DNA from: a virus | Length of the DNA: 23,015 nt | Reading direction: 5' to 3' (one strand) | Virus record (IMG/VR): IMGVR_UViG_3300010350_001258 | In this document: positions 2,212 through 23,015 of the stretch, in pieces | Position numbering within the stretch: position 1 is the stretch's first letter | Layout: the number at the start of each line of letters is the position of its first letter | Position numbers and translations under genes: made by a program | The notes under the pieces: generated by a model | Seen by the model: only the letters and a program-made list of their open reading frames with translations | What the model was told of the DNA's origin: nothing | Databases searched by the model: none

Positions 2212-2991
2212 ATGCAATTATCAGACGGTTTACACTTGTCATTTAAGGATCTTCATGATAACGACTGGCTAGGAGTTATCTCGAATAATATCGATCCCAC
2301 TTTTTCGGGGAGGTGCCAAGTTCGTGTTTATAGGTTAATGGATCATTTAAATGCAAAGGATCTTCCATGGGCAGTTCCGATAAATTCCACAATATTTGCT
2401 GGTGATGGTGCTGGATCCTTATCTGTTCCTAAAATCGGTCAAATAGTTCGCATTCAGTTTAATAATGGGGATATTTATTCCCCTGAATATACTACTATTC
2501 AAAATATTGATACTCAATTAATTGAAAGAATTAAAAATGACTATGATGGAACTCATGTCATGCTTTATGATCCGGATGAAGAACTTACAGTAATTTATCA
2601 AAGAAATAGCGGGCTTCAAATGTTCTACAGGGGGAGTTTTATTCAGATTTCCCCAGACAGTATGATTACGATAGAACATGCCAACCAGGAATCTTTAATA
2701 CAGTTAGATGGGGATAAGCTTAATATCGTTACTAAAAATGAAGTTAATGTTTCTGCTGCAGCTAAAGTTAGTATAAATGCTGATGAAGTTGTAGCAAGTG
2801 GTAACCAGGCAACTAAGTTAGGGAATCCCCCCTATTATCATGCTGTTTTAGGAGAAGTTTTATTTCCATTATTACAAACTATGGCCACTGCTTTGGATGC
2901 TAAGATGCCAGCAACGCCGGGGGTAAATGTAGGATTAGTTCAGCAAGCTAAACAAGCAGCTATTTCCAATAATGTATTAATTGGCAAGTAA
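2212..2991 (+). CDS. Baseplate central spike/hub protein, T4 gp5 OB-fold / P2 gpV-like, no lysozyme domain
   Basis: WLGVISNNIDPTFSGRCQVRV...LPWAVP...GSLSVPKIGQIVRIQFNNGD...PEY matches the gp5/VgrG/gpV OB-fold signature. It is followed by short beta-strand repeats (SFIQISPDSMITIEH, SLIQLDGDKLNIVTK) typical of the spike beta-helix. Confidence 0.85.
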   Translation: MQLSDGLHLSFKDLHDNDWLGVISNNIDPTFSGRCQVRVYRLMDHLNAKDLPWAVPINSTIFAGDGAGSLSVPKIGQIVRIQFNNGDIYSPEYTTIQNIDTQLIERIKNDYDGTHVMLYDPDEELTVIYQRNSGLQMFYRGSFIQISPDSMITIEHANQESLIQLDGDKLNIVTKNEVNVSAAAKVSINADEVVASGNQATKLGNPPYYHAVLGEVLFPLLQTMATALDAKMPATPGVNVGLVQQAKQAAISNNVLIGK

Positions 2992-3120
2992 TTTTTTCCC
3001 TTTATTCCATGGAATTCTTCCTTTTAATTTTTTTCCTATTTTTTCTCTAGTTTCCTCGGATGGGCTTAAACCTATATGAGCTTTTCCAATATTTATGTGT
3101 CTCGGAAAGGGAATTCCTTT
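2977..3120 (-). pseudogene. Decayed NUMOD3 (homing endonuclease DNA-binding) remnant
   Basis: The minus strand encodes NIGKAHIGLSPSEETREKIGKKLKGRIPWNKGK, with LSETHK just upstream in a shifted frame. These resemble the C-terminal motifs of the intact endonuclease at 10942-11550 (LSDSHKKNIG, SKETKDKMG, IPWNK). No nuclease domain or credible start. Confidence 0.7.
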
Positions 3121-3125
3121 TATTA

Positions 3126-3136
3126 GATAAATATAA
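3126..3136 (+). promoter_or_regulatory. Putative T4-like late promoter GATAAATATAA
   Basis: 14 nt upstream of ATG 3151. The identical 11-mer occurs at 10130-10140 (+) and 22608-22618 (-). Contains the ATAAATA core of T4-type late promoters. Confidence 0.65.
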
Positions 3137-3150
3137 AAAGAAGTTTCTGG

Positions 3151-5739
3151 ATGATAATAAGGGAAAATATAAATTTTGAAAGAGGACAGGATCCAAAAAA
3201 GAGCCTTCGTATTGGAGTTCATCATTTAATTCCTCAAATAATTGAAAAATTCGAGGAATCTCCATTTGAACTTACTCGAAGAGGAGAAGTTTTAGATCTT
3301 GAACAGAAGTATGAAGTGTCTCCAGAAAATTTTCATAATCCTGCAGGGCATCCAAAATATGATTGGGAATTTGTAGATATTATGGAAGATTTTGAAGTTT
3401 CCATTCTTTATATGATCGATTTGAACAATGGCGAAATTTTAAGAAAAATGAAAGTTTCAAATCCTCGTATTGATGCAGAATATATTGATAATGAGAATTG
3501 GAAAATTACTTCTTTAAACCCCGATAAGATTTATGAAGAAATAGATCAAGATTATGCTTTAATTGATATTGCCGATGCTGCAGAATATTTATGGGATATG
3601 TATCAAAAGCAAATAGAGGAAGAAGAATTTGAGGATGAAGAGATTGATGAAAGCTTAGATTTTGAAAGAGGAAAAACACCAGAGCAAATTAAAAGAGATT
3701 TAAGAGGACATTTTCGTCCTGGCGAAATTTTGCTCCGTCCCGATAATGGATACAGTCCTCATCAAACAATTATGGTATTTAAAAGAATAACTCCGCCGGA
3801 TTATGCTGGAGAACAATATTATGAAGTAGCTACTTTAGGATATATCAATACTAAGGGAGAGATAAAAACCTACGGATCATCTCGCTTTGCAATGGATGAT
3901 TATAATACGAAAAATATGGTTTCCATCGATACTAAAACAAGATTCCCGAATAAAGAAGAAGAGCTACTTATAAAAAAATTCTTAAATAAAAGCAAAATTT
4001 GGAAAATAAAAGAAGCTATTGGAATTTATCCTATTCTTAATGGTAAATCTTTATCCTTAACGGAATCCGTTGATTTTGTCCGCGGTCAAGAAAATCCATT
4101 GGATTCTTTAGAGATAGGACGCGTTTTGGAAAGAATAAAAGAGCAAGTTATGGAAATAGGTCCTGATATAGCTCAAAAAACTTCTCTAGGATGGTTAGTT
4201 ACTCAAGTAAAATTTGTTGAAGGAATTCCAGAGGGTCAAGTTATCTGGAATTCTAAATCTTTAAAGGATCTTACCGAATCCGGATGGAAAAAACTTTTCA
4301 GAGAAATGAAAGAAATTAAATCAAAAATGTTTCCAAATATGAAGGAAGGATTAGAATTTAATAGGGGGATGGACCCAAGGGATTCTATGGAAATAGGAAG
4401 GATCGAGGAAAGAAGAGAGGCTTTAATAGATTGGATTATAGAGCAAGATCCTATAAAATGGACGGGAAGCTCTGTATTAGCTCCTTTTATTACTCGGAGA
4501 CATCCTCATCCATGGGGTTGGGATATGAAAAAATTTGAAGATGCTTCCCTTATGGAACTAAATCATATAAAAGAATATATTGAAAAATGGGAAGCCGTTG
4601 ATAAGAAATATAATGTCTTTGATGGACCAGCTTCAAAGGTTCATGAAAGATTAGATTTTGAAAGGGGAATGGATCCTAAACAATCTATGGATATTGGACG
4701 CTTTGCTAAGATCCATAAGATTACTAGCAGCGACTTAGAATTTTTAAAAATATACACTAATGATGGAGATGGGAAGGGCCATGTAAATGAAAAATTTTTC
4801 GAAGAAGTTTATCAGGATTCATCGGGATTTCCAAAATACTTAGAAAGAGTAAGGGAAGTTTATCAAATATTAGAGCCTTATGAATATCTTTTTGGGGATC
4901 GTTTTCCTTCAGATATGAAAAAAGAAATGAAGGAATATGTAAAAAGTTACTTAAAAAATCCTAAATATAATTACGCTTATAATTGTGATATTATGGGGGA
5001 TGGTGATGTTGATGTGTTCTTTTCAGAAATAAAGTTACCTTCTGCAGAACTTCTTGGAAAAAAACCTGGGTTAAAGGAATCCATTAATTTTGAAAGAGGC
5101 ATTGATCCTAAGAAATCTATGGGTATCGGCCTTAAAGCAAAAGTCTTGAAGGGATTATCTCGATTAGTTCAAGAATTACATATAGGTTCTATAAATTTAA
5201 GTGGAAACGGAACGGATCTTTGGCTAGAAGTTAGCGATTATGGAATAGCTAATTTTGAAGATTATTTTTTCTCGCTTTTAAATAAAGAATTTTTCAAACA
5301 ATATTATATAGAAGCAAAACCTCGAAAATATAAGAATTCATGGAAAAATGATTGGGTATTTATTATAAAACCGGAATACAAGTCTTCTTTTCGGGCTTGT
5401 TTTGATCGAAATGGATATTTATTAGCAGTCGACGAACTCGGAGAATCTCTTAATTTTGAAAGAGGATTGGATAAGGAAAAATTAAGAATTGGAAATATTC
5501 GTCCGGTTGAAAAACTTAAAAATGACTACAATGAAATTGTAAAATTCGTACAAACATCCAATGGAATAAAATTTCAGTATCCTTTTTCAAAAGAATCCAT
5601 GGAATATGTTTCAGATAAGAAGCATTTTGGATGGGGAAATATTCACGTCAATTTCAAGAATATGAGTAGGGAGGAACTTTTTCCCTTTGAATTAATTGTT
5701 CGCAAATATAAAAAGCTAATGGGATTAGATGAGTCTTAA
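3151..5739 (+). CDS. Modular hypothetical protein with seven 'FERG-DPK' tag repeats (putative polyprotein)
   Basis: 862-aa ORF. Tags start at aa 3, 165, 303, 397, 497, 641 and 763, separated by dissimilar ~95-160 aa domains. Confidence 0.85.
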   Translation: MIIRENINFERGQDPKKSLRIGVHHLIPQIIEKFEESPFELTRRGEVLDLEQKYEVSPENFHNPAGHPKYDWEFVDIMEDFEVSILYMIDLNNGEILRKMKVSNPRIDAEYIDNENWKITSLNPDKIYEEIDQDYALIDIADAAEYLWDMYQKQIEEEEFEDEEIDESLDFERGKTPEQIKRDLRGHFRPGEILLRPDNGYSPHQTIMVFKRITPPDYAGEQYYEVATLGYINTKGEIKTYGSSRFAMDDYNTKNMVSIDTKTRFPNKEEELLIKKFLNKSKIWKIKEAIGIYPILNGKSLSLTESVDFVRGQENPLDSLEIGRVLERIKEQVMEIGPDIAQKTSLGWLVTQVKFVEGIPEGQVIWNSKSLKDLTESGWKKLFREMKEIKSKMFPNMKEGLEFNRGMDPRDSMEIGRIEERREALIDWIIEQDPIKWTGSSVLAPFITRRHPHPWGWDMKKFEDASLMELNHIKEYIEKWEAVDKKYNVFDGPASKVHERLDFERGMDPKQSMDIGRFAKIHKITSSDLEFLKIYTNDGDGKGHVNEKFFEEVYQDSSGFPKYLERVREVYQILEPYEYLFGDRFPSDMKKEMKEYVKSYLKNPKYNYAYNCDIMGDGDVDVFFSEIKLPSAELLGKKPGLKESINFERGIDPKKSMGIGLKAKVLKGLSRLVQELHIGSINLSGNGTDLWLEVSDYGIANFEDYFFSLLNKEFFKQYYIEAKPRKYKNSWKNDWVFIIKPEYKSSFRACFDRNGYLLAVDELGESLNFERGLDKEKLRIGNIRPVEKLKNDYNEIVKFVQTSNGIKFQYPFSKESMEYVSDKKHFGWGNIHVNFKNMSREELFPFELIVRKYKKLMGLDES

Positions 5740-8700
5740 AGATAAATTAATAAAAGTTGCCTTTGGAAAATTAACTTCAGAAATCGAGAAATATAAGGGG
5801 TTCCTTAAAAAACCTGCTACGCTTCTCGCTTTAAAAACTGCTGCTTTTTCTTTGCTAAATATTCTACTTTCCCAATTAAAAGGTGTTATAGGTAAAAAAT
5901 TCACTGATGATGAAGCTTTATCCTATGTAAAAAATAATAGGGATCTCCAAAAGCTATGGGGTTTAATTGGGCAGGATGTAGAAGAATCCTATCTTAATGA
6001 AATACTTCTATTATGCGAAAATCCAAATTATTATGAACAAGATTTTGAAAATTTCCTAAAATCCTTGGATGGAAAAAATTTATCTGGAGAAGATTATATA
6101 AACTTGTTCAATAATTCTGATGAATTTGACAGAAAAACTTCTAATTATAAAAAGAGCACAGAAATGGCAAATGCTATTTCAAAAATAACTGAGGTAGCTC
6201 CCTGGGCATTTATGGTTTATGTAATTGGATTAAAGATAAAAGAATTTTTGTCTCAAAATGAAGATCCTTCACCATATAGAGGAAAATATCTTCAAAGACT
6301 TATTCGCACTATTTCATCTATATTAAAACAGAGAATCCAAGATGAAAAAAATGCTGTTAAGGGAGTAAAAGATGCTGCAAAAGCTATTTCGGAAAAAGAA
6401 AGAAAACAAATTGAAGCTATTCTAAAATCTTTAAAATCTTTAGATGCAATTATAGTTGGAAGCTTATTAGCTTCAGCAGTTTATCTAAGAAACCGAAAGC
6501 TTTTACAAAGTAAATCCATTGAATCATTCCAGGAAATACACTCTGCTCAATTATGCGAAATGATAACAGAACCGGAAATACCTGAAATTGTTCCAGTTCC
6601 GTTAGATGAAAATTTGGCCCTCTGCCCTGTTGATTTAGATGATAATTTAGTGCCTCATATTCCAATTGAATTATCAGATCTTTCCTGCGAAATACCTTTA
6701 GGACAGGATTCTTCAATTATGGAAGGATCCCAACCAGATATTGCGGCTAAAGCTCTTTATGAAAATACTTCTTCGGTTAACTTTAATATTTTAGTTAAAG
6801 CCGGGGATACCCTTAGAGTAAATGTTCCGATGGCTACTTATGATGGCGATAAAGTTTATCCTACTGTGAATGGAGTTGTAGAAAAAATAGAGTCTAATAA
6901 AATTTATGTTGAAAATATTTCAGACCCGGATCAAACATATTTAGAAGAAGTGGTCACTAAAATGAATGATGCTTATAAAGAATTGAATGATACTAAATTC
7001 TTTTTAGTTGATTTTTATATTCCTTCTTGGTATCCTGTAATGTTAAAATTTTCTCCTCTTATCGATGGAAGCCTTTCTATTCAAGAATCATTATTACTTT
7101 TCTATAAAACAGGAGGGGTAAAGAAAAGGTGGGATGGAATACAAAGTGATTTCGAAAAACAGAAGAAAGATTGGGATAAAAGAAATAAAGATATAGCCAA
7201 AGACAGTAAAGTAAAAGCCAAAGCCGAGGCTGAAAAGATGGACGATATTCGAGTTGAAATGAATCAAAGTGAAGAAGTTCTTTTTAAACAATTAAAGGCC
7301 GATGCTGTACAAGGGGTAAATGAATCCAAAGTAACTAAACCGGATGAAAAAGAATTCGAGCTTATAGAATATTACTTTTGGCTATCCCAAAAATTAATGG
7401 CTTATTTTGATAAGAATACTATTGCAACCACTATGATTAATAAAATATCTGAATTCCTAAGAGAAAGGTATTTTACCGACAAATATAGTGTAGATAAAAT
7501 AAAATCAAAAATCAATAACTATTGTAAGGATCTTTCTCAGGGAACTTTCTTTTCAGTTACCCCGGATTTTTATAAAATATTAAGACAAAAGTGGGACGAA
7601 TCTAATGCCCAAATAGGACAGCGTTTTACAGCTGCTGAGGACTATTTAAAGGATTTACAGAAAAATAACAAAAAACTAAATGACACTGAAAAAACCTCAT
7701 TACGTGAATTTATTTTATTCCTATTTAATTTTAGCATTGAGATCGATAAACTTATCGAAACAAAATACTCAACGGAAAAAACAAAATGGACTGAAACAGA
7801 ATTAGAAGGAATATGGATTGAACAATTCTTCGCTTCTCTTTGGAAAAGATATGATGCTCTTCCCGGGGAAATTGAAGGTTACCAAAAGGAATTAGATGAT
7901 ATTGCTCGTACTTTTACTACGTATTCGATTATAGTTATAAATGACGAACAATATAGATATTATTCAATTGGAGAAGCTGCATGTGAACCACCAGAAGAAG
8001 ATGACCCATATCTTTCTCCTAAAAGTAAAAAAGGATATGGTGATATTTCTTATTGGTTAAGATATTGTTCATTTGCTACTCTTGCAAGTGTTGCTAATCC
8101 GGCAACAAGTTGGTCAACAGGGGTTCCCCCTCCAATAGGTCCTATTCCTTTTCCAACCGTTTATATTCCAATAAAAGCTTTTGAAGTAAACTGGGGATTT
8201 ATTGTTGTTGGACTTACAATTACAGGTATTTATCCTTTCCCCTGGGCTCTGTTTGTTAACTGGTCTACCGAACATCATGTTCCTTTAGCAGATCCGGCAA
8301 CTTTAGTTAAAAAAGAAGTGGAAGCTTTAAAAAAAGAACTTTCTAATCAATTAAAGGAATTTAAAAAGGAAAGATTAAAAACTTATTTGGATAAAGCAAA
8401 AGAAGACATAAAATTTCTTCAAGAACAATTATCTGATTTGCAAAATCAAAAAAGAATTCTTAGGGAGCAAAAGCCCCGAAGAGATTATTCGGAAGAAAGA
8501 AAAGTCGATATTCCTAGATATACAACAGATCTAACAAAATGGACTGAAAAAATGCTAGTCTTAGACGAATTGATTTTAACCTCTAAGAAAGATAAAATGC
8601 AAGCGGAGATTAAATATAAGATCATTAAGGATGCTTATGATGGATCTCCTATTGCAAAAAATCAGGATGCTAAAATACAAGCTTTGCAAAACACAGAAGA

Positions 8701-9151
8701 AAAAATATTATCTCAATTTGATAAGCTAGATTTATTAATAGCTGGAATTGATAAGTTTTTAGCTCCACTTCCTATTGCAACAAAACCGGAGACAGCTAAT
8801 TTTGCATTTACTGTTAAAAATCCAAAACCTATTATTAATATGGCTACGAATATTGACCAGAATATAAATTATGGTCCTTTAAATAAAATTATAGAAAAAT
8901 TCGAGCCTAAAAATGAGGACTTAATGAAAACCAATTATGGTTCTATTTTATCCAAAACATTTAATAATTTCAAAGGATATAAAACAGCTTTGAAAGCAGC
9001 TATGCCTACTATAATTAAAAGCGATCCTTTTCCAAAATATGAGAATTTAAAACCTAGTAATCTACCATGGATGTCTTTCCTATTAAAGGAATGGGCTCCA
9101 ACAGGAGCAAAAACTTATGGATTTCCAGGATTTCCTCCGCTGCCTCTTTAA
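5729..9151 (+). CDS. Large hypothetical protein, probably virion/tail associated (coiled coils, lipoyl-like hairpin, hydrophobic Pro-rich domain)
   Basis: 1140-aa ORF overlapping the previous stop by 11 nt. Contains ILVKAGDTL...VYPTVNGVVEKI, a YWLRYC...PIGPIPFPTVYIP...GFIVVGLTITGIYPFPWALFVN segment and long K/E/L-rich helical stretches. Confidence 0.6.
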   Translation: MSLKDKLIKVAFGKLTSEIEKYKGFLKKPATLLALKTAAFSLLNILLSQLKGVIGKKFTDDEALSYVKNNRDLQKLWGLIGQDVEESYLNEILLLCENPNYYEQDFENFLKSLDGKNLSGEDYINLFNNSDEFDRKTSNYKKSTEMANAISKITEVAPWAFMVYVIGLKIKEFLSQNEDPSPYRGKYLQRLIRTISSILKQRIQDEKNAVKGVKDAAKAISEKERKQIEAILKSLKSLDAIIVGSLLASAVYLRNRKLLQSKSIESFQEIHSAQLCEMITEPEIPEIVPVPLDENLALCPVDLDDNLVPHIPIELSDLSCEIPLGQDSSIMEGSQPDIAAKALYENTSSVNFNILVKAGDTLRVNVPMATYDGDKVYPTVNGVVEKIESNKIYVENISDPDQTYLEEVVTKMNDAYKELNDTKFFLVDFYIPSWYPVMLKFSPLIDGSLSIQESLLLFYKTGGVKKRWDGIQSDFEKQKKDWDKRNKDIAKDSKVKAKAEAEKMDDIRVEMNQSEEVLFKQLKADAVQGVNESKVTKPDEKEFELIEYYFWLSQKLMAYFDKNTIATTMINKISEFLRERYFTDKYSVDKIKSKINNYCKDLSQGTFFSVTPDFYKILRQKWDESNAQIGQRFTAAEDYLKDLQKNNKKLNDTEKTSLREFILFLFNFSIEIDKLIETKYSTEKTKWTETELEGIWIEQFFASLWKRYDALPGEIEGYQKELDDIARTFTTYSIIVINDEQYRYYSIGEAACEPPEEDDPYLSPKSKKGYGDISYWLRYCSFATLASVANPATSWSTGVPPPIGPIPFPTVYIPIKAFEVNWGFIVVGLTITGIYPFPWALFVNWSTEHHVPLADPATLVKKEVEALKKELSNQLKEFKKERLKTYLDKAKEDIKFLQEQLSDLQNQKRILREQKPRRDYSEERKVDIPRYTTDLTKWTEKMLVLDELILTSKKDKMQAEIKYKIIKDAYDGSPIAKNQDAKIQALQNTEEKILSQFDKLDLLIAGIDKFLAPLPIATKPETANFAFTVKNPKPIINMATNIDQNINYGPLNKIIEKFEPKNEDLMKTNYGSILSKTFNNFKGYKTALKAAMPTIIKSDPFPKYENLKPSNLPWMSFLLKEWAPTGAKTYGFPGFPPLPL

Positions 9152-10152: not shown

Positions 10153-10887
10153 ATGAAACTTGTTTGCGAATCATTAGAAGAATTATACGGAATTGATATA
10201 GAAGCTCCTGAATATTCCGCTGGAGAAAAAGCTGCTATAACAAAAGGACAGGATGTTTTAACTAAACAACAATTAGCTGCAATGTATTTAGCTGCTAAAG
10301 ATGCTATGGGAAGATCCGAGGATACCCGTGGCAGGGGGGATACTGCTCTGACACGTAATGCTATAAAAATTAATAAGGAAGAAAGCACAGATTTTAAAAA
10401 ATTATCTATTCCAAGATTAGGAGATGTATTGGATCTTAAACCCCGAACAGTGAGTTATACAATATCAAAATTTAGACTTTTAATGCAAGGAAATCGTGAA
10501 GGAATTCATGGGAATGATTTATATGAAAAAATAATAAACGCATTTGATGAATTTGATAAAATGGAAAAAGAAGGCAGATCAGGGGAAGTACATGCATTAG
10601 CCGCAGAAGCTGTAAATATGAATGCAGGAACAGAAAGATCTACAAAATATGAGGAAGAATTAGCAGGCCAATACAAAAAAACAAAAGAAAGAATAGAAAG
10701 AAGAAACAGGAAAATAATGCAAGATACCTATGATTTATATAATCAGCTTAGAGGGCCTTTTGGAGAAAGAGCACCAAAAAAGATTATTGATAAACTTTCA
10801 TTAGAATATGGTTTGTCTCCAGAAGATATTCGCACAATAATTAAGACAAATCTTAAAAACGATCCCAATCTAGCAAGAAAATTTTAA
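10153..10887 (+). CDS. Hypothetical protein (helical), N-terminal leader MKLVCE-SLEE
   Basis: 244-aa ORF behind a late-promoter motif. No recognisable catalytic motif. Confidence 0.8.
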   Translation: MKLVCESLEELYGIDIEAPEYSAGEKAAITKGQDVLTKQQLAAMYLAAKDAMGRSEDTRGRGDTALTRNAIKINKEESTDFKKLSIPRLGDVLDLKPRTVSYTISKFRLLMQGNREGIHGNDLYEKIINAFDEFDKMEKEGRSGEVHALAAEAVNMNAGTERSTKYEEELAGQYKKTKERIERRNRKIMQDTYDLYNQLRGPFGERAPKKIIDKLSLEYGLSPEDIRTIIKTNLKNDPNLARKF

Positions 10888-10941: not shown

Positions 10942-11550
10942 ATGGTTTCGGGGATAATATATTGTGCTACTTTACCATCTAATAAAAAATATTATGGGTT
11001 TTCTTTAAATTTGGAAAACCGAAAAAGAACCCATAAATGCCATGTAAATGCAGGAACCAAGAATAAGTTTTATAATGCTATTAGAAAATATGGATGGAAT
11101 AATATTATATGGGAGATAATTGAAAAACATGATGCAGAATGTAAAAAGGATTTAAAAGAAATCCTATGCAATCGAGAAATGTATTGGATTGCAAAATCAA
11201 ATACTTTTTTGGATGGATATAATATGACCGAAGGAGGGGATGGGGCGTTAGGATTATTATGGAAGGAAAATTCCAAAGAAAAATTAAGTGAAACTCAAAG
11301 GGGAAGAAAATTATCGGACAGTCATAAGAAAAATATTGGATTGGGATTGATCGGGAAATCCAATGGTATGAAAGATAAACATCATGATGAAAAAACAAAA
11401 CATAACATAAGTAAAAAATTAGAAGGAATAAAAAGATCAAAAGAAACTAAAGATAAAATGGGAAAATCTAAAATAGGAAAAAATAATCCTATGTATGGGA
11501 AAATCCCGTGGAATAAAAAAATCGATAAAAATGAGAGCAAAATTTGTTAA
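10942..11550 (+). mobile_element. Free-standing GIY-YIG homing endonuclease with NUMOD3 repeats (Seg-like)
   Basis: GIIY...KYYG motif, conserved Arg (NRKRTH), Glu (NREMYWI) and GYNMTEGG. C-terminal NUMOD3-type repeats (SDSHKKNIG, HDEKTKHNIS, RSKETKDKMG, NPMYGK, IPWNK). Confidence 0.92.
11531..11550 (+). repeat. Direct repeat, right copy (ATGAGAGCAAAATTTGTTAA)
   Basis: Holds both the start of the downstream gene and the endonuclease stop codon (TAA 11548-11550). Confidence 0.85.
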
Positions 11551-12325
11551 TGAGGGATACGGGCAGAAAGATTATGTGAGAATGGAGGATATAAAAACCA
11601 AGGCTAATGGTGATCATGATAAGGAAATTTCCTTAGCTACAACACAAGCTAAAATTATTCAAGATGCTGGTAAAGCACAGGCACGAGCTGAAGCAGCAGA
11701 AAAAGTATTTGGCGCTGGGAGCGATATTTCTCAGATATTCCATGATCGAGCTGTCGAATTAGGGGGATCTCATGTTGTTGGAAAAGCTTCTAAACAAGTT
11801 CTTGCTCCCGTTACAGGTCCGGTAGAAAAGGGACAAAAAATCGAAAGAAAATTTAAAACCCAATATCTTCTTCCATCTGAAAGATTAGGGGCGGCAGCTC
11901 CCGAAATAGGGCAAGCTAAAACAGGCGGTGGTGGTTTTACAAGAGATCGTGGAGATGTTTTTAAATCTATGGGTATTGGAAGATTTTCTACTCCTCCAGA
12001 AGTTGGGGGAAAAAGACTTTCAGATGCTTCTATTCTGCCGCTGGGGAGAGTTAACTTTGGAACCGGGGAATCCCCATATTTTAACGTTTATGACACTTAT
12101 GACGGAACTGCAGAAATATGGAAAGATCATAGTGGAAATTTCAAAGTTGTATTTACCTCGGGGGATAAACCCCTCGCAAAATTAAAAGACTATAGGGATT
12201 TTAGACACGATCAAACCTGGCAAAAAATGGGCCAATGGATTATGGTAGACTATGTTCCTGTAAAAGAAATGAAAGAACTTATCCGTGTTTATGGCGGAAG
12301 TTTACCAGGATATACATATAAGTAA
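11531..12325 (+). CDS. Hypothetical protein, N-terminal leader MRAKFVNE (start moved from 11495 to 11531; 264 aa)
   Basis: The MRAKFV start matches the neighbouring MRAQFI (12331) and MRAQFV (10895) starts. The 11495 start would lie deeper inside the endonuclease gene. Confidence 0.8.
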   Translation: MRAKFVNEGYGQKDYVRMEDIKTKANGDHDKEISLATTQAKIIQDAGKAQARAEAAEKVFGAGSDISQIFHDRAVELGGSHVVGKASKQVLAPVTGPVEKGQKIERKFKTQYLLPSERLGAAAPEIGQAKTGGGGFTRDRGDVFKSMGIGRFSTPPEVGGKRLSDASILPLGRVNFGTGESPYFNVYDTYDGTAEIWKDHSGNFKVVFTSGDKPLAKLKDYRDFRHDQTWQKMGQWIMVDYVPVKEMKELIRVYGGSLPGYTYK

Positions 12326-12330
12326 GATTC

Positions 12331-12693
12331 ATGAGGGCACAATTTATAAGAGGAGCAGAATCCAAAAAAGAAATCCTTGATAAAATTCTGAATAGAATTA
12401 TTACTCTTGAAATGATGTGTGCTAATGTCGAATTAAATTCAAAAGGTAATTTAGATCAAACAGATAAGGATACTAGATATTTTGTTAATTATCTAAAGAA
12501 AGTAAACGTAGATTTTAAAGTTACCGGGAAAGACAAAAATGGAATGGTATATGTAACTATTTCCGGGCCAAAGGAAAATATAGTTAAAGCTTTAGTTCAA
12601 TGGGATGCTCACGGAAGAAACCAAAAACAATTAGCAAAAGCTCTAGAAGATTGGAATGGTGATGAAGAAGATTTATGGGATATAATAGGATAA
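12331..12693 (+). CDS. Hypothetical protein, N-terminus MRAQFIRG
   Basis: 120-aa ORF packed 5 nt after the previous stop. The N-terminus combines the MRAxF leader with an FxRG element. Confidence 0.8.
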   Translation: MRAQFIRGAESKKEILDKILNRIITLEMMCANVELNSKGNLDQTDKDTRYFVNYLKKVNVDFKVTGKDKNGMVYVTISGPKENIVKALVQWDAHGRNQKQLAKALEDWNGDEEDLWDIIG

Positions 12694-12694
12694 T

Positions 12695-13003
12695 ATGGGA
12701 ATTGTTAAAGAATATATTGATTTTGAAAGAGGACAGGATCCTAAGAGGTCTATGAGAATCGGAAAAGCTTCAAGATCTTTTGAAGATAGTCTAGAAGCTG
12801 GGGAATATGTTAGAGATAACTTATTTGAAATTACAGGATTTGAAGAAATTATTACAGATCCCGAAAATGAAGATCAAATCGTTCCTGAATTAGCAGATAA
12901 ACTATATAAATGGTATAAGGAAAATGAATATCGTATCAAAGATAAAAATGAAGAAGATTTTTGGGAAGCATTTATTGATTGGGAAAATTTAAGATATAGA
13001 TGA
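12695..13003 (+). CDS. FERG-tag protein (single module)
   Basis: Starts MGIVKEYIDFERGQDPKRSMRIG; 102 aa with an acidic cargo domain. Confidence 0.85.
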   Translation: MGIVKEYIDFERGQDPKRSMRIGKASRSFEDSLEAGEYVRDNLFEITGFEEIITDPENEDQIVPELADKLYKWYKENEYRIKDKNEEDFWEAFIDWENLRYR

Positions 13004-18847: not shown

Positions 18848-19144
18848 TTAATTAATGTTTATACTTTCTTTATCGTGTGCTATAGAAAAAGTCTTTTTGA
18901 TGTATTTTACTTGTTCCAGTATAAATTCTAGCATTCCCTCAAGTTGGGCAAAAAGAGGCTTTTGCCTTGGGTTTGACCAAAGTTCGGGGGAAGTCATCTT
19001 TTGTAAAATTTTACCTTGATAACCGTATCCAAGATTTAAAAAATTATCTGAAAGATGTTTAGCAGAATTAAGATAAGAGGGTCTAACTCTAAATCTTTGG
19101 CTCTTACTGCTTACTGCGTTTTGTTTTTGAGTTGCTGTTGCCAT
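18848..19144 (-). CDS. Small hypothetical protein in the baseplate operon
   Basis: 98-aa ORF coupled to the gp6-like stop (TAATG) and ending 6 nt before the gp7-like start. Confidence 0.75.
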   Translation of the reverse strand: MATATQKQNAVSSKSQRFRVRPSYLNSAKHLSDNFLNLGYGYQGKILQKMTSPELWSNPRQKPLFAQLEGMLEFILEQVKYIKKTFSIAHDKESININ

Positions 19145-21039
19145 TATAAGTTAGAAACAATAGTTTTATTTTGATTGGAATTAAAGTTAACTGGGGTAAT
19201 TCCCCTCAATTGAATATTTACTGTTGAAAGTCTATCCTTTGCAACTGAATCATCATAGGTAATCCCGAGTTGACTTTCGAATCCCCCTCTAATGAGAGGA
19301 TAAATATCCTTAACAGTTACTCTATTTCCAAATGCGTCTAATACAAATCTCTCAAGAATAATATCTCCGTAATCATCAAGTCCATATCCATTTCCATAAA
19401 TTTGGAAATTATTTTTATCTGCATCGAACCAGACAGAGACAGAGTCTACTCCATCGATGCCTTCAATTATTCTGACTAAATCTGATTGAGGAATTCTATC
19501 CCTTCTAGTATTTTTCAAGAAATAATCAGATGTTTTAGAGATAATTTGCTCCCTAATGTTGTTAAGATCGTAACCTTCATAGATAACTAAAGCAACATTA
19601 AGAACAAACTTAGGATAACGAAGGGTCATAATAGCATTATCTACAGTTAATATTCTTTGACCGCTTTCTTCAATTAGATCCAAAATTCCTTTCTTTTCAA
19701 GATCTGTTAATTGAAAAGAATCAAGCCCGCAAGTAAAATAATTCTGATTTGCAGGAATTCTTTGATTGACATCAGGAACTAAATAAAGATAAACGGTATT
19801 ATCGTCTTTCTTTTGTTCTTCAACTTGAGCCTGCCAATAATAAAGCTGATTCTGAGCATTATCTAATTCTGTTTTCTTAGCAAGAGATTGAGAAGCTGAA
19901 GCACCAACGGTTGCTAATAAAGTCCTGTATTGTTCGCTTATATTCTCATAAGTGGTTTTAGCTACATTATATTTGTCCACTGCATATCTGTCTTCAAAGG
20001 TTGAAAATCCAGGAATGGCATCAACAATCGTGAACATATTAAGCTTACGTAAAAAATAGATGTAGTTATCGGTATTAGCTAAAACAAAACTTCTTGACAT
20101 GTGAGGAGCAAGTAATCTTGTTAAGTAGACTGGCTCTTCATTAGCTCCAAATAAAACATCCTTCTGGATGGAAACCCTAAGAATTTTATTAAGATCTATT
20201 TCTTGGCTATTAATTGAATAACCCTTTCCTTCAAATTTCCAATTTGTTGTGGTTTTAGCTTCAGCAGTTCTAATATTTCCTGCATCCCCATCAGTTAACA
20301 AATATTCTACAAGGATCGTTGAACCAAGTGGGGGAACAGCACCATTATATCCATTTCCAAAGAATACGTCGATGCCGCCAGTTTGTCCTGTTTTAACTAT
20401 AACAGATTCTTCATTGAAATTCATATCAAGAATGGATTCTCTCTTTGCCCATTTTTTACCATTCACATAAATGTTAACAAAGAAATTATCTATGATGGAT
20501 CCTTTTTTAGCTTGAAAATTAAATGATTGTAAAGGATCCCCTGTTCCTGTTGACTGCTGATATTCTAATTTGCCTTGAACAATATTTACATCAACATAAT
20601 TGGTTACAGACCCAAGATCTAATCGAACCTCATTCCCAGGTAAAACTACTGTATATGTAAGTCCATTATAAGTTGATGTCAATCTTGTATAATTAGGAAT
20701 AACTGCGGTGTTTCCATAAATATCTAATTTCTGCCCATTATAGAATAATCTTAGAGTTCCCCTAGCAGCTACACCTCTGGATGAATTATGACCCGTTAAG
20801 CTTGCAAGTCCTTTTACACTTTGGGAACGAGAAGCTGTATTGATGTTTAATTCAGTAATGGAGTCTTCAATATAATATAGGATTGTCCTACCAATATTAA
20901 GAACAACCTGAAGAAGCTGACCCATAGGAGATGCCATGGTAAAATATTGTCCGGCATCTTCATACGTTTGTTTTATAAAGTTAATTGAATCCTGATATAA
21001 TTCAGATAATCGGATTCGGGCAGTTTTAATTATACTCAT
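19144..21039 (-). CDS. Baseplate wedge protein, T4 gp6 / baseplate J-like
   Basis: N-terminal helical region with ARS..SVKGLASLTGHN..RGVAARGTL. Central STGTGDPLQSF and VFFGNGYNGAVPPLGSTILVEYLLTDGDAGN motifs, followed by GANEEP and DNTVYLYLVP. Confidence 0.88.
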   Translation of the reverse strand: MSIIKTARIRLSELYQDSINFIKQTYEDAGQYFTMASPMGQLLQVVLNIGRTILYYIEDSITELNINTASRSQSVKGLASLTGHNSSRGVAARGTLRLFYNGQKLDIYGNTAVIPNYTRLTSTYNGLTYTVVLPGNEVRLDLGSVTNYVDVNIVQGKLEYQQSTGTGDPLQSFNFQAKKGSIIDNFFVNIYVNGKKWAKRESILDMNFNEESVIVKTGQTGGIDVFFGNGYNGAVPPLGSTILVEYLLTDGDAGNIRTAEAKTTTNWKFEGKGYSINSQEIDLNKILRVSIQKDVLFGANEEPVYLTRLLAPHMSRSFVLANTDNYIYFLRKLNMFTIVDAIPGFSTFEDRYAVDKYNVAKTTYENISEQYRTLLATVGASASQSLAKKTELDNAQNQLYYWQAQVEEQKKDDNTVYLYLVPDVNQRIPANQNYFTCGLDSFQLTDLEKKGILDLIEESGQRILTVDNAIMTLRYPKFVLNVALVIYEGYDLNNIREQIISKTSDYFLKNTRRDRIPQSDLVRIIEGIDGVDSVSVWFDADKNNFQIYGNGYGLDDYGDIILERFVLDAFGNRVTVKDIYPLIRGGFESQLGITYDDSVAKDRLSTVNIQLRGITPVNFNSNQNKTIVSNL

Positions 21040-21497
21040 AGTATTTTACTATATTTTTCTCGATTCTTTTTTAAATTTTTTAGCCAGTCCTGAATATCAT
21101 CAGTATAAACTAATTTTGTATCCCAGGATAAATGCCATTGGGGTCTATTTTCAATAGCTAAATCTGTTAAAACCTGAATAAGTTTTTTCCCATCATCTTC
21201 AGATAGACATTCAAATTTAACGGCATTACCCTCTAATACCCTAACAACCCTAACATAAAAATGGTTCCATTTAGATATTGAAATATCTTCCGGATTTACT
21301 CCTGCATTCATAAGTAATTCTACAGTTTTTGCTATATTTTCAATATGCAAATTTACTTTTTTATCTTCCTCCCCTGATTTATCCCAGGTGGTATCAAATT
21401 CGACCCCCTTTTGTTCAAGGGATTTTCGAATACCTATCTCAAGAGCATCCTTTGGATTTTTTCCTCTCTCAAAGTTAATATTTTCTCTAACTAACAT
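21036..21497 (-). CDS. FERG-tag protein (single module) inserted between gp25-like and gp6-like genes
   Basis: Starts MLVRENINFERGKNPKDALEIG. Overlaps both neighbours (TAATG and ATGA). Confidence 0.85.
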   Translation of the reverse strand: MLVRENINFERGKNPKDALEIGIRKSLEQKGVEFDTTWDKSGEEDKKVNLHIENIAKTVELLMNAGVNPEDISISKWNHFYVRVVRVLEGNAVKFECLSEDDGKKLIQVLTDLAIENRPQWHLSWDTKLVYTDDIQDWLKNLKKNREKYSKIL

Positions 21498-21859
21498 TAC
21501 TTAACTAATACTCCTATTGCTTTTTCATCATTGATATAAAAATCGATAACGCAGAAATCAAATCCATCTGCTTTACCAAATGAAACCGAAGGCTCTATTT
21601 TAAATTTGCTGGATTCAGAAATATATTGTTGTACTTGTTTCTTAATTTTTTCTTCCAGCTCAAGTTTGTTTATTCTTGTTTCAAAAATAAGGTCCTCAAT
21701 GCCCACTCCAAAATTAAGATCCCCTAAGACCTGTCCCTGAGTGGTTCCTAGAATCATTCTTATCTTTGAAATAATACTTTCTATTGGATCAGAATGTTCA
21801 AAAACCCCATAACGATAATTTGGGTCCTCGGGGTTTCTGATGTATATTTCTTTAACCAT
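21497..21859 (-). CDS. Baseplate wedge / sheath initiator, T4 gp25-like (GPW_gp25)
   Basis: IISKIRMILGTTQGQVLGDLNFGVGIEDLIFE...IKKQVQQYI matches the gp25 signature (L.T..GE....P.FG..l..llFE). 120 aa. Confidence 0.88.
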   Translation of the reverse strand: MVKEIYIRNPEDPNYRYGVFEHSDPIESIISKIRMILGTTQGQVLGDLNFGVGIEDLIFETRINKLELEEKIKKQVQQYISESSKFKIEPSVSFGKADGFDFCVIDFYINDEKAIGVLVK

Positions 21860-21944: not shown

Positions 21945-22556
21945 TTATAAATTATTTACCATAAAATGCTTTCCTTCATAGACATTATGAATAAGTGAAG
22001 GAATATTGCTATTCTCTTTAAGATCCGCAAATTTCATCCCTACAAGTTTGTCCTGAAGATTAAGGCCTGGATTCTTCTTCTTAGCGTTATTGATATAAGC
22101 AGAATAATAAGGAATAAGCTTGTCATAATCGTTTTTGTCATAAAGGAGACGATTACTTTCTCCAATGCAAATATTATCGGTATCCTTATATCTTTGAACC
22201 GTAACAAATCCAGTTTCTGCAGGAAGCTGTTTACTCCATTTTTTGGAAAATTCGCCTTTTAGAATACCTTTAGAAAATAGGATCTTAAGAATGTCATGAT
22301 GAATTTTTTCAGAGAAATTTTCCATATAAATGTCACCATCTTTGGAAATAACTCCTCTGATATTAGGACCTAAAGAAGAAATAGAAGCAGGGTTTTTAAT
22401 GAGAGCCCATTTACCATCCCTTGCAATAATATCTTCAGATGAAATGGATGCTTGCTTTTCGCTTCTATCGGTTTCATCGGGGATGCCAAACATTCTTTCG
22501 GCTGCTTTATCAGCTACACCTTCTTGAATAACATCTATGACTTTTTTAGCTTTCAT
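21945..22556 (-). CDS. Hypothetical protein, N-terminal leader MKAKKVIDVIQE
   Basis: 203-aa ORF with its own promoter motif and terminator. Confidence 0.8.
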   Translation of the reverse strand: MKAKKVIDVIQEGVADKAAERMFGIPDETDRSEKQASISSEDIIARDGKWALIKNPASISSLGPNIRGVISKDGDIYMENFSEKIHHDILKILFSKGILKGEFSKKWSKQLPAETGFVTVQRYKDTDNICIGESNRLLYDKNDYDKLIPYYSAYINNAKKKNPGLNLQDKLVGMKFADLKENSNIPSLIHNVYEGKHFMVNNL

Positions 22557-22620: not shown

Positions 22621-22647
22621 AAAAAAAGAGCCATTAGGCTCTTTTTT
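22621..22647 (-). terminator. Intrinsic terminator (potentially bidirectional)
   Basis: AAAAAAAGAGCC-ATTA-GGCTCTTTTTT, overlapping the Hsp20 stop codon. Confidence 0.88.
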
Positions 22648-23015
22648 ATTGAATTGCTATTCTTTTTTGTGTTTTAGATTCCTGAGATTTAAATTTAATT
22701 TCCAAAATTCCATCTTGTAATTTAGCTTCGACCGATTTAGAATCTATTCCAAATTTTCTCATTTTATAAGAGAATTTCTTTTCACCGATCCTTTTCTTTA
22801 GCTCCTCATTTTTGAGCTCCCCTTCTATAGTTATTCCCGTTGCATCAATATCTATTTGGATATCCTCTTTGGAAAAACCTGGAGCTTGAACAGTAATTAC
22901 CATTTGCTTATTTTCTTCATCGAAAAAATAATGAGCAGGCTCTGCGGAATAATCCCAGTCAATTTTTTTCAGCCAATTATTATTAAAAAAATCATTAAAG
23001 AAAAAATCATCAAAT
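22646..23015 (-). CDS. Small heat shock protein Hsp20 / alpha-crystallin family (5' partial)
   Basis: APGFSKEDIQI...ITIEG...VEAKLQDGILEI motifs. The frame stays open upstream of 22903 to the window edge (FDDFFFNDFFNNNW...), which is the Phe-rich N-terminus typical of sHSPs. Confidence 0.92.
   Translation of the reverse strand, partial: FDDFFFNDFFNNNWLKKIDWDYSAEPAHYFFDEENKQMVITVQAPGFSKEDIQIDIDATGITIEGELKNEELKKRIGEKKFSYKMRKFGIDSKSVEAKLQDGILEIKFKSQESKTQKRIAIQ

Follow-up and report, generated by a model that had tools for sequence, protein, structure and literature searches.

How a virus comes to carry an open reading frame (ORF) in which one short peptide returns seven times, each time at the head of a different module, is the question raised by IMG/VR virus record IMGVR_UViG_3300010350_001258, of which a stretch of 23,015 nucleotides (the window) was analysed here. 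The ORF in question encodes 862 amino acids (aa), and the repeated peptide, called the tag below, comprises about 20 residues. Inspection of the letters without database searches (the sequence-only reading) had led to the proposal that formerly separate genes were fused in frame, that the product may be cut back into units at the Glu before each tag, and that the tag could act as a recombination anchor. Our analysis makes it highly probable that the 862-aa ORF is a shuffled string of independent tag-headed units. What may happen to the string after its synthesis is weighed further below.

Seven tags and their modules in one reading frame

Translation of the ORF and a six-frame motif scan of the window placed the tags exactly at the positions proposed before, that is at nt 3157, 3643, 4057, 4339, 4639, 5071 and 5437, with tag 2 being spotted by eye. 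The consensus reads [VIL]-x-E-S-[ILV]-N-F-E-R-G-x-D-P-K-x-[SA]-[ML]-x-I-G, and five of the seven copies are canonical or nearly so. The features of the ORF are as follows:

3151..5739, plus strand: 862-aa ORF with seven tag-headed modules (stop-free translation; 101 kDa, pI 5.4)
3157..3216, plus strand: tag 1 (aa 3-22), canonical; the 5-residue leader before it has Glu as its last residue
3613..3651, plus strand: acidic stretch (aa 155-167), the end of module 1 running into tag 2; conserved in orthologs
3643..3702, plus strand: tag 2 (aa 165-184), with a divergent second half; the same variant heads module-2 homologs elsewhere
4057..4119, plus strand: tag 3 (aa 303-323), with a one-residue insertion; predicted local distance difference test score (pLDDT) below 50
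4339..4398, plus strand: tag 4 (aa 397-416)
4639..4698, plus strand: tag 5 (aa 497-516), forming the left side of the tag5/tag6 hybrid in relative L006
5071..5130, plus strand: tag 6 (aa 641-660), pLDDT below 50, between two confident domains
5437..5493, plus strand: tag 7 (aa 763-781), without Pro via a one-residue deletion; pLDDT below 50

Modules 1-7 measure 162, 138, 94, 100, 144, 122 and 100 aa, as the sequence-only reading had it, and the acidic linker that it had noticed in front of tag 2 is likewise present; the last three residues of this stretch, I-D-E, are the first three of the tag. All seven boundaries within the ORF carry a hydrophobic residue, any residue and Glu before the tag. 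When the strict pattern F-x-R-G...[LMIV]-x-[ILV]-G was used, six copies were counted in the ORF, as compared to 0.003 expected from 2000 residue shuffles, and 11 copies in the six frames of the window, as compared to 0.027 expected from 300 shuffles.

Strict clustering of the module bodies (E<=1e-8, >=70% coverage) revealed that the seven modules are mutually unrelated. Structures were predicted by AlphaFold for the whole protein using 34 aligned relatives (model 1) and for aa 1-399 (model 2). Modules 2, 3, 5, 6 and 7 obtained block-mean pLDDT values of 60-94; for module 3 (aa 324-395) the values were 60-84 in the model of aa 1-399, and the remaining four have the following cores:

3694..4026, plus strand: folded core of module 2 (aa 182-292), pLDDT 71-82; stand-alone as P0013
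4690..5073, plus strand: folded core of module 5 (aa 514-641), pLDDT 84-93; stand-alone as P0007 and P0011
5128..5433, plus strand: folded core of module 6 (aa 660-761), alpha/beta, pLDDT 62-82; stand-alone as P0100 and P0118
5485..5730, plus strand: folded core of module 7 (aa 779-860), helical, pLDDT 82-94; stand-alone as P0012

Tags 6 and 7 (aa 642-659 and 762-778) fell below 50 in the whole-protein model, and so did the tag-3 region in the model of aa 1-399. The models predict that modules 2, 3, 5, 6 and 7 are separate folded domains and that the tags between them are low-confidence, disordered linkers, which agrees with the notion of a chain of independent tag-headed units.

Module reuse and crossovers at the tag

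A phmmer search of 1.84 billion representatives (E<=0.001) retrieved 276 clusters, with relatives of 75-1511 aa that carry up to 10 tags each. The strict pattern occurred 532 times in 166 of 176 related proteins at a median spacing of 118 aa. Among these 532 tags, Glu at position -4, that is four residues before the tag Phe, is kept in 97%, Pro in 95% and the last Gly in 98%, while the search pattern itself prescribes Phe, Arg and the first Gly. The information content of internal tags (55.7 bits, 438 copies) is as high as that of N-terminal tags (56.2 bits, 141 copies), and therefore the internal copies are being maintained and do not represent decaying relics. Selection also maintains the tag at the protein level: its copies in the window, 13 in number, share 54% nucleotide identity, with varying Arg, Gly, Pro and Ser codons and a 12-nt core common to most of them, and the amino-acid pattern is retained in proteins that are otherwise 20-25% identical. 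Along the 133 kb of the close relative G002, the tag DNA pattern has 14 matches. A pattern coding for F-x-R-G-x-D-P-K was not found in Lak-A2, even with one mismatch allowed, and thus the tag marks this clade and is not general to Lak-type megaphages.

Comparison of orthologous loci had been set beforehand as the test of the module chain, and module number and order were indeed found to vary. Orthologs of the 862-aa ORF in IMG/VR contigs are 72-95% identical; three of them have seven units and the others five or four, the ortholog in L005 being 557 aa long and that in L006 419 aa stop-to-stop (411 aa in its product, P0002). G002, which shares 88% identity with the window in its gp6-like protein, carries in the same slot a 469-aa chain of four modules, of which only the M4- and M6-like modules are in common. 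The unit number of two other tag genes of the window also differs from that of relatives 86-95% identical to them. The same modules recur elsewhere in other orders and as separate tag-headed genes: by strict clusters, each of the seven has 4-11 different neighbour contexts, and M2, M5, M6 and M7 also occur as stand-alone tag-headed genes. Beside this, we observed that the stand-alone module-2 gene P0013 (L007:10001-10459, on a 376-kb NCBI contig) ends in the first six residues of a further tag, followed by a stop; this tail looks like the relic of a lost downstream module.

The idea that the tag serves as a recombination anchor is borne out by hybrid tags at deletion junctions and by the co-variation of tag halves. 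At the nucleotide level, L006 shows three junctions relative to the seven-unit chain. The first is a tag2/tag3 hybrid in register; the second joins tag5 to tag6 in exact register, its crossover lying around the Asp-Pro-Lys codons that both have in common; and the third is a further deletion whose end is not in a tag. Statistics over internal tags point in the same direction: the left flank (-8 to -1) reaches a similarity of 0.43 when the upstream module is the same, as against 0.35, and the right part (+4 to +17) reaches 0.48 when the downstream module is the same, as against 0.36. Since the tag halves co-vary with their respective neighbours, the exchanges typically occur in frame within the invariant Phe-Glu-Arg-Gly core, as in L006.

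Taken together, the module chain and the recombination anchor put forward by the sequence-only reading have both stood. Separate genes and chains interconvert, and the direction of evolution could have been either the fusion that it proposed or a splitting of chains.

Proposed cutting and head loading of the chain

The residue in front of the tag provides a handle on the fate of the chain. Glu at -4 is present in 363 of 372 internal tags as compared to 111 of 125 N-terminal tags (Fisher p=2e-4), and the difference is larger in the fetched loci (101/110 versus 61/99; p=1.4e-7). In most internal tags without Glu at -4, a Glu is found shifted by one or two residues, whereas many N-terminal tags start right at the tag with Met-Asn-Phe or Met-Arg-Ala-Gln-Phe and have no upstream site. 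The motif at the unit boundaries is conserved, with Glu in 97% of the 438 internal tags of relatives. In the set of 141 N-terminal tags, Glu at -4 reaches 89% and V/I/L dominates at -6; those with Glu at -4 mostly have leaders of 5, 6 or 8 residues. It appears, then, that the Glu site is needed only when something lies upstream. Such an asymmetry is what a cutting site predicts, and a mere linker would not predict it. After the predicted cut, every form would expose Phe 3-4 residues from a free N-terminus.

A candidate enzyme is encoded in the clade. In G002, a Peptidase_S77 domain of the T4 gp21 type (55.5 bits) heads an 844-aa ORF directly upstream of the capsid gene, and the domain is found at the N-terminus of ORFs of 781-844 aa at L090:10768-13302 (G002), L099:1566-3911 and L115:1526-3895. 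The long, repeat-rich remainder of the protease ORF looks like a scaffold, and the clade has conserved the position of this fusion immediately ahead of the capsid gene. The capsid protein itself has a site at which Leu-Asn-Glu is followed by Ala-(Ala/Glu)-Met-Gly-Gly, kept in G002 and in 23 of 25 other full-length close relatives. Close relatives show two Leu-Tyr-Glu variants and one Leu-Thr-Glu variant in the same place, and a distant capsid branch has Ile-Asn-Glu there. The Leu-Asn-Glu/Ala site, read as the maturation site of the capsid protein, resembles that of T4 gp23. The T4 protease gp21 cuts after Glu in Leu/Ile-x-Glu, a rule that the capsid site fits. As a separate observation, three tag genes (256, 163 and 130 aa) are located directly after the capsid gene at L115:6582-8235, behind a reverse-strand endonuclease-like ORF.

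On these grounds we propose that the T4-type (S77) prohead protease of the phage would cut at the [VIL]-x-E before each tag. Once loaded into the prohead, the chain would be split there into seven small proteins, whose N-termini would lie about three residues ahead of Phe. The tag left on each product could represent a common address or docking peptide for loading into the capsid or core, or for a later common step, and the pieces might afterwards form a variable payload that is delivered together with the DNA. That the 862-aa protein is a swappable payload cut into separate proteins is probable from the sequence comparisons. That the cutting is done by the prohead protease and the loading is into the head, we consider to have an even chance of being right. 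More tentatively, the whole may represent a protein-level cassette system, in which one 20-residue peptide would be head-loading address, protease mark and in-frame crossover site at once; this is possible, but on balance doubtful.

Several points weigh against cutting and loading in the head. The S77 protease is shown only for a close relative, G002, and the hydrophobic-x-Glu triplet is a short motif of low information. Among 32 capsid-gene loci, 30 have no tag gene within 4 kb. The tag genes are scattered, among baseplate genes in the window and near gp32 in L007, and therefore their location does not point to the head. In T4, moreover, the targeting sequence precedes the cut and is lost from the product, whereas the conserved part here follows the putative cut and would be retained. 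The modules themselves give little guidance. AlphaFold left modules 1 and 4 unresolved, most likely for want of diverse relatives, and family, sequence and fold searches revealed no recognisable function for any of the seven. That is, Pfam and PHROGs gave no credible match for any tag ORF at the thresholds used, a PDB sequence search with tag and modules returned one chance-level match only, the ESM Atlas yielded nothing usable for either, Foldseek against the PDB gave nothing at E<=0.001, and a wide fold search with VIA-align produced only generic alpha/beta and helical matches (Z<=6.8).

Alternatively, the chain could stay uncut as a multidomain protein, its tags being flexible linkers that each dock the same virion or host partner for multivalent binding. 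Disordered tags between folded domains agree with this, and equal conservation of internal and terminal tags would be expected if every copy binds something. However, a protein of this kind leaves unexplained why Glu at -4 is near-obligatory internally and often missing at the N-terminus, and the existence of the modules as single genes, in any order and number, makes their linkage seem unimportant. We regard an uncut chain as unlikely. It is also conceivable that the units are cut outside the head, either as tail or baseplate cargo or as cytoplasmic effectors freed by another Glu-specific protease. The gene indeed lies between the gp5-like spike gene and a 1140-aa gene and overlaps both in relatives, a further tag gene of G002 is located between its gp27-like and gp5-like genes, and the scarcity of tag genes at capsid loci noted above is in line with such a scenario. 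Yet tag genes occur genome-wide, as illustrated by the 14 matches in G002 and the genes beside gp32 in L007; three of them follow the capsid gene in L115; and the prohead protease, which is active inside proheads, is the sole protease with Glu specificity to have been identified in the clade. Cutting elsewhere than in the head is accordingly quite improbable in our estimation. Finally, conservation of the tag solely as DNA, for recombination or regulation and with a functionless peptide, could draw on the crossovers in the tag core and the 12-nt core of most copies, but is hardly credible given that synonymous sites vary freely (54% nucleotide identity, with differing Arg, Gly, Pro and Ser codons) and that the amino-acid pattern holds over 532 tags in strongly diverged proteins.

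Genomic setting, known systems and biological meaning

The following genes of the window bear on the setting of the chain; among them are the three stand-alone tag genes of 102, 110 and 153 aa that had been listed before, all recovered by the six-frame scan:

2212..2991, plus strand: gp5-like baseplate spike gene with a Phage_base_V OB domain, upstream of the tag chain
5729..9151, plus strand: 1140-aa gene downstream, overlapping the stop of the tag chain; no Pfam or PHROG match
12695..13003, plus strand: stand-alone tag gene, 102 aa
13000..14034, plus strand: 344-aa chain with three tags; two modules in L002 and L004
14360..14692, minus strand: stand-alone tag gene, 110 aa; its counterparts in L001, L002 and L004 have two modules and 255-412 aa
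15200-18841: gp7-like giant gene
19144-21039: gp6-like gene
21036..21497, minus strand: stand-alone tag gene, 153 aa, with the gp6-like baseplate gene on one side and the gp25-like one on the other
21497-21859: gp25-like gene

The tag chain is embedded in a structural operon, since its start is overlapped by the spike gene in relatives and its stop by the 1140-aa gene in the window. In L001, the 95%-identical relative, the spike gene and the chain overlap directly without a gap, whereas the window has a 160-nt gap there; a 214-aa ORF without family match (L001:12580-13224) separates the tag chain from the 1140-aa gene in L001 and is absent from the window. In G002, the further tag gene between the gp27-like and gp5-like genes encodes 103 aa. 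Overlap with baseplate genes is what points to the tag chain being a late gene; the T4 late promoter TATAAATA is not enriched in the window (4 matches versus 5.1 expected), and a single copy lies upstream of the gp25-like gene.

The source is an uncultured giant T4-type phage. Its gp6-like protein matches 31 records, including phages of Tenacibaculum, Sphingomonas, Chryseobacterium and Flavobacterium, and shares 42% identity with its counterpart in the Prevotella Lak megaphages, the nearest named relatives. For related IMG/VR contigs of 133-137 kb, completeness is estimated at about one third, which suggests a phage genome near 400 kb.

Some further observations concern the neighbours. The window also encodes an M23 peptidase, a GIY-YIG homing endonuclease (10942-11550, plus strand; PHROG 314, E=2e-22) and Hsp20, whose gene (22646-23014, minus strand) is cut by the right end of the window. 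An 82-aa ORF on the reverse strand in the gap between spike gene and chain (2977-3225) has a NUMOD3 motif with E=5e-5, which is above the cut-off, and looks like a homing endonuclease remnant. The 1140-aa protein (5729-9151, plus strand) contains coiled-coil-like regions and, around residues 760-820, a Pro/Gly/hydrophobic stretch; since its gene follows those of the spike, a role as tape-measure or ejection protein is suggested. Short leaders ending in Glu, similar to those of tag proteins and of the type Met-Arg-Ala-Lys-Phe-Val-Asn-Glu, are found in the untagged neighbours at 11495-12325 (plus), 10153-10887 (plus), 21945-22556 (minus) and 12331-12693 (plus). Of these, the 276-aa ORF holds an isolated second half of the tag, and in the 120-aa ORF the leader is merged directly with Phe-x-Arg-Gly. 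The capsid protein of relatives starts with Met-Lys-Gln-Leu-Asn-Glu.

In the literature on phage polyproteins, prohead protease and ejection proteins, we did not find such chains described, and a full-text search with the motif string returned unrelated words only. Short conserved peptide-coding motifs are known as in-frame crossover points that swap modules in the tail-fibre genes of T-even phages; there, segments of one adhesin are exchanged, whereas whole unrelated domains are gained, lost and reordered here. Encapsulin cargo-loading peptides, which are short and disordered with a small-hydrophobic-Gly pattern, mark unrelated cargo for an HK97-fold shell and may serve as a lead, but they are mostly C-terminal and are not known to be linked to cutting or module chains.

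The internal proteins of T4 are a diverse set that has only a capsid-targeting sequence in common, which is removed by gp21 (PMC3012670, PMC5694885). Like IPI, IPII, IPIII and Alt, the tag-headed units are unrelated small proteins sharing only a short N-terminal peptide; both have a hydrophobic-x-Glu site before the mature part, which is a prediction for the units, and the clade possesses the T4-type S77 protease and a T4-like capsid maturation site. However, the T4 proteins are single units, whereas up to 10 units occur in one ORF here, and searches with Pfam, PHROG and tblastn against 50,697 phage records revealed no sequence homology to IPI-III or Alt. The polyvalent proteins of phages and conjugative elements combine disparate domains in one polypeptide, and the prediction for them is processing and joint delivery with the DNA (Iyer et al. 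2017, PMC5512222). The 862-aa ORF is alike in that it strings many disparate domains in one phage polypeptide (seven, of which five are predicted to be folded), and GNAT modules occur in its relatives. Polyvalent proteins are, however, defined by known enzymatic or DNA-binding domains and often have their own zincin-like peptidase (PMC5512222), whereas the modules here are small, match no family, include no built-in peptidase and have a uniform tag at each joint. Pfam gave no match to conflict-related domains or to a zincin-like peptidase in the 862-aa ORF, and neither the ORF nor the 102-aa tag gene had a tblastn match in INPHARED, which holds these 50,697 records. Among the chains of 44 long relatives, ankyrin repeats are present in 7 and GNAT acetyltransferase in 3, a peptidase domain was not found, and every remaining module is without assignment; the ankyrin and GNAT modules would fit a host-directed payload without proving one. 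By sequence, the 862-aa ORF is homologous neither to T4 internal proteins nor to polyvalent proteins. By analogy, it could represent targeting and head-protease cutting of the known kind, applied to whole strings of swappable units with one retained tag at every joint, a view for and against which we find the balance level.

The tag clearly illustrates how a peptide motif can at the same time be a recombination joint in the shuffling of domains. Provided that the units are excised and packaged, these phages would possess a large, rapidly reshuffled kit of small proteins entering the cell together with the DNA. Most units are outside known families and would then be a rich source of candidate anti-defence or host-takeover factors, with the tag as a handle to find such cargo by sequence; the tag could perhaps also load foreign proteins into large capsids, as has been done with the T4 targeting sequence. 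Should the cassette system hold as well, phages of about 400 kb would assemble, reorder and exchange dozens of small injected effector domains in an integron-like manner.

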